IMG/VR virus record: IMGVR_UViG_2534682080_000004
Location: 1-18,355 of that record
Reading direction: 5' to 3' (one strand)
Length of the DNA: 18,355 bases
Origin: a virus
Lineage: Duplodnaviria > Heunggongvirae > Uroviricota > Caudoviricetes
Below the pieces are notes generated by a model. The model searched no databases and was not told where the DNA came from. It was given only the letters and a program-made list of their open reading frames with translations. The position numbers and the translations under genes are program-made. How positions within the stretch are numbered: the stretch's first letter is position 1; every line of letters starts with the position of its first letter. Positions 1,459-2,621 of this stretch are shown in pieces.

Positions 1459-2621
1459 TTACACATCATTAGTACCTTCCTTATTTTTTGACTGGGACAA
1501 ATTTGGGACCGATGGGTTCAGGATCGAGTCTATTTGCCGTGCGTGTTCGGTAAGGTGATTAGGTGCAAGGTGAGCATATCGACGAACCATTTCGATAGAC
1601 TCCCAGCCTCCCATTTCCTGTAACACTGACAACGGGACTCCGGCTTGAACCAGCCAACTTGCCCAGGTGTGTCTCAAGTCGTGAAATCTGAAATCATCAA
1701 TACCAGCCCGTCTCAGCGCCGCTTTCCAGGCTGTGTTTGCGTCATACCGCATCTTCCTTACTGTTGGCGCTTTCGTTCCGTCTGGTTTGGTACAGCTTTC
1801 CTTGTACACAAATACCCAACGGTGATGATTCCCGATTTGTTTTTTCAAAACGCGACATGCAGTATCATTCAGCGCAACGCCAATTGCGCGGTTTGATTTA
1901 CTCTCTTCCGGGTTTATCCATGCCACCCGGCGCTGCATGTCTATTTGTTGCCATTCAAGGTTGATGATGTTCGAGCGTCTTAAGCCTGTTGCCAGTGCAA
2001 ATTCAACAACAGACTTTAATGGCTCCGGACATTCATCAATCAGCCTTTGTGCTTCATGGGGCTCCAGCCAGCGGATCCGTTTATTCTTTGGTTGAGGCAC
2101 TTTAATAATTGGTGCCTTATCCAGCATTTTCCATTCACGCTCTGCGGCTCTTAGTAGGGCCTTTATAAATGAAAGATGCGTAGCCTTCGTTGCAACGGAC
2201 GCTGGTTTTGGCGTGTATTCTGGAACAGGTTTCCCTTTTTTCTGCATGCTTCTGCCCTGAGTCTCCAGTTTTCCTCATGACGCCGGTTCGTCATTTTCTG
2301 CATTGCTGAATAAATTTTTGATTCAGTAATGTCTCTTAGTTGCATTCCTGCGAAATGTTGAAGCCAGAATCCGATCCGGCTTTTGTCATCGTCCAGTGAT
2401 TTTTTATGTGCTTTCTCTTCAAGCCACCTGACACACGCTTCCTCGAACGTTATATCAGGTATTTCACCAAGTTTGCTGACCCGCCATGCTTCAGCCTTTA
2501 GCTTGTCATGGAGTTCTGTCGCCTGCCTTTTGTCCTTTGTTCCAAGAGACTGTTTAAATCTTTTACCGTTCGGCAATGTGAAACTGGCGTACCATATTTC
2601 ACCTCTGCGGAAGAGTGACAT
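1459..2621 (-). pseudogene. int: Tyrosine integrase (P22 Int-like), disrupted by a frameshift (two overlapping ORFs 2163..2621 and 1459..2247)
   Basis: N-terminal ORF starts [47 protein letters not shown]-terminal ORF carries the catalytic region ([39 protein letters not shown]). The frames switch at a T6 run (2236..2241, A6 on coding strand); adding one A restores ...[18 protein letters not shown]... RBS AGAGGAAAG upstream of ATG at 2621. Confidence 0.8.

Follow-up and report, generated by a model that had tools for sequence, protein, structure and literature searches.

A one-base frameshift in the thrW-linked integrase gene of a lambdoid prophage: recent deletion or homopolymer undercall

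Has a prophage that carries a defence cassette lost the use of its own integrase, or has a sequencing project lost one base of the integrase gene? The question is raised by a stretch of 18,355 nucleotides (IMG/VR record IMGVR_UViG_2534682080_000004; hereafter 'the window'), in which the integrase gene, int, is interrupted at a run of six T residues. A preliminary description of this DNA had offered two explanations, a locked-in lysogen and a homopolymer sequencing error. Here, we compare the gene with its intact relatives, follow the frequency and the recurrence of frameshifts at the run, and consider what the broken gene would mean for the mobility of the prophage. Our best explanation as a whole, to which we give a probability of just under one half (about 0.48), is that the deletion is real, that excision by this integrase is lost or greatly cut, and that the prophage is fixed at thrW. 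Taken simply as real mutation versus artefact, the odds are about even. Under either explanation, the lesion is of an ordinary and already known kind, namely the loss or miscall of a single homopolymer base in an integrase family that is well known, and it involves no new principle.

The split in int and the intact relatives

The lambdoid prophage, inserted in a chromosome of the E. coli type, starts straight after thrW, and its integration module lies on the minus strand (Table 1). The module has the layout of the P22/SfV type, with int at the 3' end of thrW, downstream of proA, and a 116-aa xis overlapping the start of int. The thrW tRNA gene directly adjoins int throughout the related loci.

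Table 1. Coordinates and properties of the features of the window discussed in the text.
Feature	Position	Strand	Remarks
proA	1..1254	+	Opens the window
thrW, tRNA-Thr (anticodon CGT)	1369..1444	+	Found with ARAGORN; chromosomal attachment site
attL			Left end of the prophage, at the 3' end of thrW; the window holds attL only
int, tyrosine recombinase of the SfV/SfIV/P22 family, with one-base deletion	1459..2621	-	1163 nt here, 1164 nt when intact
N-terminal int ORF, 152 aa	2163..2621	-	From the ORF list; weak DUF6538 match at residues 3-44
C-terminal int ORF, 262 aa, internal ATG	1459..2247	-	PF00589 at its residues 59-230 (184-355 of intact Int)
T6 homopolymer	2236..2241		A6 on the coding strand; T7 in intact alleles
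A_AAA_AAG heptamer, product of the deletion	2235..2241	-	In the zero frame of the N-terminal ORF; first A is codon position 3
xis, 116 aa, HTH_17	2498..2848	-	Overlaps the int start as in P22; PGAP: WP_000433939.1 in relatives
163-aa ORF	5916..6407	+	Variable slot between yfdP and the repressor gene
Two-gene cargo cassette	12839..15231	-	Between the Q antiterminator (12488..12859) and holin (15494..15709) genes

The division of int into two overlapping reading frames, as previously described, is readily seen: the ORFs at 2621..2163 and 2247..1459 overlap over exactly 2163..2247, around the six T residues, which stand on the plus strand in the context ggtttccc tttttt ctgcatgc. Because the split is read directly from the sequence and is not a statistical pattern, chance is not an issue. 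On the coding strand, the change is from AGA AAA AAA GGG to AGA AAA AAG GG. Computed addition of one T to the run gives a continuous protein of 387 aa, as the preliminary description had also stated, and this protein is residue for residue the annotated integrase WP_000051893.1 of E. coli Z142-6. A megablast search of 5,426 complete E. coli genomes with positions 1440..2640 (a query of 1201 bases) yielded 1045 near-full-length matches, the best of which span 1202 bases. Aligned base by base with two of the best-matching complete genomes, the window differs over 1440..2640 solely in having T6 in place of T7.

The characterization of the restored protein as 'P22-Int-like' is right at the level of the family, but the closest relatives are the thrW-specific integrases of SfIV and SfV, and P22 Int is farther away. 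Identity of the int-xis DNA is 99.6% with SfIV, 99.4% with SfV, 98.8% with SfI, 98.3% with SfII, and 78.7% with P22; at the protein level, restored Int shares 382 of 387 residues (98.7%) with SfV Int and 347 of 387 (89.7%) with P22 Int. In SfIV, SfV, SfI, and SfII, which are serotype-converting, thrW-specific phages of Shigella flexneri, int has the same position beside the tRNA-Thr gene thrW, and xis overlaps the int start. In these phages, however, which have been isolated and are functional, int is intact, whereas int in the window is split; the isolated functional phage phi458 likewise has an int of intact length. The rest of the prophage in the window is unlike the Shigella serotype-converting phages: it is a lambdoid mosaic that has early genes of the yfdP-T type and lacks gtr genes beside int. 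P22 resembles the locus in its 387-aa Int and 116-aa Xis, in the overlap of xis and int, and in its attachment at thrW, and its int is intact.

The two frames part after Gly130. The N-terminal fragment consists of 130 native residues followed by 22 out-of-frame residues and a stop, and its native part comprises an arm-binding-like N-terminus and part of the core-binding region; by analogy with the domain organization of lambda Int, we take the break to lie inside the core-binding region. The catalytic domain (PF00589, residues 184-355 of restored Int; E = 3.5e-48, 164 bits against a cut-off of 27.1) falls wholly within the C-terminal ORF, which matches the same model by itself with E = 1.6e-47. 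Alignment to HP1 integrase (1aih) and to Xer recombinases covers the conserved catalytic motifs (the HxLRH box and the RYAH tyrosine region), compared here at the level of whole motifs. No single frame joins the DNA-binding and catalytic parts, and int as sequenced is a pseudogene of the tyrosine recombinase family.

Frameshifts at the tract: frequency, recurrence, and origin

If the deletion is present in the DNA of the strain, one A:T pair would have dropped out of an A7 tract by a slippage-type event, splitting int after Gly130, upstream of the catalytic domain, and int would be a recent pseudogene, recent because it shows no other change from the common intact allele. The rival explanation is that the missing T is a homopolymer undercall made in sequencing or assembly, and that the true sequence of the strain is T7, encoding an integrase that is intact and functional. 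We rate this reading as a strong contender that falls somewhat short of an even chance. It fits the fact that, this base apart, the window matches a very common intact allele completely (100% identity), as a single miscall would give.

It also fits the distribution of the allele, since T6 is nearly absent from high-quality data. Searched with a 71-nt probe, complete RefSeq E. coli genomes contain exact T6 in 1 of the 1246 that match, namely in NCTC 13148, where PGAP flags int as 'frameshifted'; a frameshift at the tract was found in 0 of 57 metagenome contigs and in 0 of 4 GTDB species representatives. In a large protein collection, the exact 152-aa fragment occurs on 35 contigs and the exact intact protein on at least 1000. 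Among the 119 IMG/VR loci listed in a search with a gapped pattern, five are frameshifted, four of them by T6 and one by loss of a neighbouring G (GGG to GG; C2T7 on the plus strand), and the others (112 T7 and 2 of the SfV type) are all intact. The rate of frameshifts among these IMG/VR loci differs from that in complete RefSeq genomes (p = 2.6e-5). The frameshifts occur in 5 of the 25 oldest isolate drafts versus 0 of the 93 others among the loci listed (Fisher p = 3e-4), and this clustering suggests a technology-linked undercall of the 7-mer. The genome of the window is not among the complete RefSeq E. coli assemblies, and some carriers come from error-rich assemblies in which T6 is accompanied by many further homopolymer deletions, the other private one-base indels numbering 11 in L004, 2 each in L013 and L083, and 1 in L008. 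Both alternatives of the preliminary description thus stay in play, but the artefact carries more weight than had been implied, as the T6 calls cluster in old-draft and error-rich assemblies.

The five frameshifted IMG/VR loci (L045, L050, L083, L084, and L095) have early IMG taxon ids (2529-2549) and lie on short viral contigs (9.7-30 kb). A search for exact T8 with a T8 probe found none in the complete RefSeq E. coli genomes. One of these genomes, NZ_CP195960.1 (H121; 275158..275262), has a tract region with the length of a +1 variant and a single mismatch to the T8 probe across 105 nt; here the frame would be shifted the other way.

Several observations stand against an undercall. The window contains no private single-base indels elsewhere in the 12.9 kb for which at least three comparators are available, the 33 other runs of at least 6 nt within 1..15371 all match clean complete genomes, and the same agreement with the references holds for 11 other runs of at least 7 nt. 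With no other homopolymer anomaly, the window is therefore not an error-rich assembly. Nor is T6 confined to poor data: it occurs in recent runs and in otherwise clean assemblies (NCTC 13148, L012, L045, L084, and L095), and 12 of the 17 carriers, among them one complete genome and four of the five old drafts, are as clean as the window. These four early-era carriers are clean elsewhere (26 kb in total for the comparison), an outcome that a generic error of about 20% per 7-mer would rarely produce (about 2% by our estimate). The converse idea, that carriers in general are more error-prone than non-carriers, was considered and set aside, with other private indels present in 4 of 16 versus 17 of 119 (not significant, p = 0.28).

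A second frameshift allele, adjacent to the first, also argues against the artefact. In this allele, a G is lost from GGG (CC+T7 on the plus strand as opposed to CCC+T6) at the position equivalent to 2235 of the window, and the encoded N-terminal fragment of 152 aa is identical to that of the A-loss allele. It is carried by four recent runs (L006, L007, L010, and L011) and one old draft (L050), assemblies that have no other private indels over 3.5 to 10.6 kb. Because a run of three bases is less likely to be miscalled, the G-loss allele argues that real frameshifts do arise in the tract.

The A-deletion is found on at least five int haplotypes and the G-deletion on at least three; each carrier haplotype has an intact haplotype at least as near to it as any other carrier, a pattern expected of a mutational hotspot, and both deletions occur on the window's own int haplotype. 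As frameshift alleles lie on several haplotypes, the tract has been struck repeatedly and independently, and, judged from these alignments, it is a hotspot for slippage, miscalling, or both. Clonal inheritance of T6, which might have served as proof of a real mutation, was rejected: the closest pair of T6 carriers (NCTC 13148 and DRR275261) differs at 0.7 sites per kb and has different int haplotypes.

The NCTC 13148 locus (L003, NZ_OZ510750.1, 8255..18071) holds a truncated version of the prophage, in which the early region and a tail-fibre-assembly gene are followed directly by an Avs2 (AVAST type 2) defence gene. Since this prophage is truncated, its T6 sits in a clearly decayed element.

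Should the missing T of the window prove an artefact, the 7-mer would be one that older and error-prone assemblies repeatedly under-call, and calls of a 'frameshifted integrase' at this position should not be taken for biology unless backed by reads.

A slippery heptamer at the break

The deletion creates an in-frame A_AAA_AAG, a slippery site of the dnaX type, on the coding strand (GCA TGC AGA AAA AAG GGA). On the minus strand, the heptamer runs from 2241 to 2235. The C-terminal ORF is shifted to the -1 frame (frame offset 2), and a simulated -1 slip on the heptamer produces a 387-aa protein identical to the T7-restored Int. A frameshift mutation, if real, would thus have created a slippery site able to suppress that same mutation in part. 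On the G-loss allele, a -1 slip on its A_AAA_AAA would give an Int with Gly130 changed to Arg.

How much wild-type protein might be made in this way? Few sites in E. coli are as prone to shifting as A_AAA_AAG (PMC5009743; PMC4066793), but heptamers without stimulators raise frameshifting in reporters only 2- to 10-fold over a background of 0.055% (PMC4066793). Downstream of the heptamer in int, we found no stimulatory RNA structure, with folding no better than that of shuffled sequences (z = 0.29 and 1.26); the only structure nearby is a 4-bp hairpin that abuts the heptamer. A ribosomal leak to exactly wild-type Int is plausible on this analysis and, given that no stimulatory structure is present, would be expected to stay well under 1%. 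A weak AGGG motif lies 13 nt upstream of the heptamer. It precedes the internal ATG at 2247 with a spacing of 7 nt, and the C-terminal fragment might be translated on its own, although activity is not expected of it.

Programmed -1 frameshifting in dnaX and in the IS3 family relies on the identical heptamer, placed in the correct frame ahead of an ORF in the -1 frame (PMC5009743). Unlike those systems, int has neither a downstream stem-loop or pseudoknot nor a clear upstream Shine-Dalgarno stimulator, and its frameshifted arrangement is not conserved, so that basal slippage only is expected. The ORF is intact in 1245 of 1246 genomes, in 114 of the 119 IMG/VR loci listed, in 57 of 57 metagenome contigs, and in all isolated phages. 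The tract itself varies across the family. SfV reads AGG AAA AAA GGG, in which the wild-type run is A6, interrupted by a G, as compared with A7 in the intact alleles of int here, and P22 reads AGG AAG AAT GGG, without any homopolymer at this position. Because the tracts of SfV and P22 differ, the A7 run arises by accident from a single synonymous AGA codon. Programmed frameshifting was rejected on these two grounds, the missing stimulatory structure and the unconserved tract.

The same evidence bears on the wider proposal that the tract is a functional switch, being either a programmed -1 frameshift site that sets a low level of Int or a phase-variable locus that is ON with A7 and OFF with A6 or G2. 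Its attractions are a perfect in-frame heptamer, a slip product that equals wild-type Int, the weak upstream AGGG, and OFF alleles that arose repeatedly on different haplotypes, with both kinds on the haplotype of the window. These OFF alleles do stand beside ON alleles, but they are rare and are partly tied to error-prone assemblies, and the frameshifted arrangement is the rare state of the locus rather than the conserved one. Seven bases are short for a contingency tract, and the run, which has only that length when intact, is neither long nor conserved, being absent in P22 and interrupted in SfV. With no stimulatory structure downstream and int of intact length in every isolated functional phage, we regard a functional switch as extremely unlikely. 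A related and more elaborate idea would make the A7-G3 tract a recurrent, reversible OFF switch for prophage mobility, in which loss of an A leaves a self-made recoding site and a trace of wild-type Int, and so anchors the defence prophage without a dead end; this we consider very unlikely.

There is precedent for partial compensation of this kind outside bacteriophages. In herpesvirus thymidine kinase G-run mutants, one-base homopolymer indels that inactivate the gene are partly offset by low-level frameshifting on the run itself, which can restore traces of the full-length product (PMC5009743). That leak has been shown experimentally and under drug selection, whereas for int we only infer the leak and any selective value.

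Excision, the cargo cassette, and neighbouring loci

We return to a real deletion as the preferred reading. The N-terminal fragment would be without the catalytic domain, and the C-terminal fragment would have only half of the core-binding part and none of the arm-binding part. As neither fragment has the complete set of domains, neither should recombine DNA, and the predicted loss of recombination activity follows from this layout of the two ORFs. Int-dependent excision would then cease or fall by orders of magnitude, and the prophage would stay fixed at thrW together with its DS-1 defence cassette.

This block is probably not absolute. A -1 slip on the heptamer would yield exactly wild-type Int, the tract may regain its base by replication slippage, and Int could come in trans from a related prophage. 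With these three presumed routes of escape, the term 'locked-in' used in the preliminary description is too strong.

Disrupted integrases are common and well documented in otherwise substantial prophages. A similar state is known from Sp3, Sp11, and Sp12 of E. coli O157:H7 Sakai, which, as proposed here, retain the other prophage genes and the cargo although int has been inactivated; the integrases and the lesions are different ones (PMC2669165). Defective prophages of O157 Sakai can still be mobilized through prophage-prophage interactions, so that a defect in int does not guarantee immobility (PMC2669165). A literature search for frameshifts in the int genes of thrW prophages found nothing specific.

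If the deletion is real, it would represent a very recent first step in the domestication of an otherwise intact-looking lambdoid prophage, and the loss or near-loss of excision would bear on the horizontal spread of the DS-1 cassette.

The cassette itself, which the preliminary description had noted as cargo, is present and matches the DS-1 anti-phage pair. Its 391-aa protein matches NCBIfam DS1_1 (nucleoid-associated anti-phage protein, YejK-like; E = 2e-135) and its 404-aa protein matches NCBIfam DS1_2 (E = 3e-112), both at equivalog level. PADLOC v2, which has no model for the DS-1 pair, gave no match for the cargo genes. The GC content of the cassette is 0.34-0.39, compared with about 0.53 in its flanks. 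DS-numbered systems and the YejK domain in defence are treated in the DefensePredictor paper (PMC13092281), and nucleoid-associated proteins as sensors of phage infection are the subject of a 2026 preprint.

Two further loci of the prophage may be recorded. Near position 5796, upstream of yfdP, the window reads TGC where L006, L010, L014, L015, L083, and L095 read TGTC; the difference lies within a small ORF that PGAP annotates in relatives as 'hypothetical protein, frameshifted', and it is a shared polymorphism rather than one private to the window. The 163-aa ORF between yfdP and the repressor gene (Table 1) gave no Pfam, NCBIfam, or PADLOC match. Its product has a coiled-coil-like N-terminus and two CxxC pairs (CPKC...CLHC), and exact copies of it are confined to a few prophage contexts, where they invariably take the same slot.
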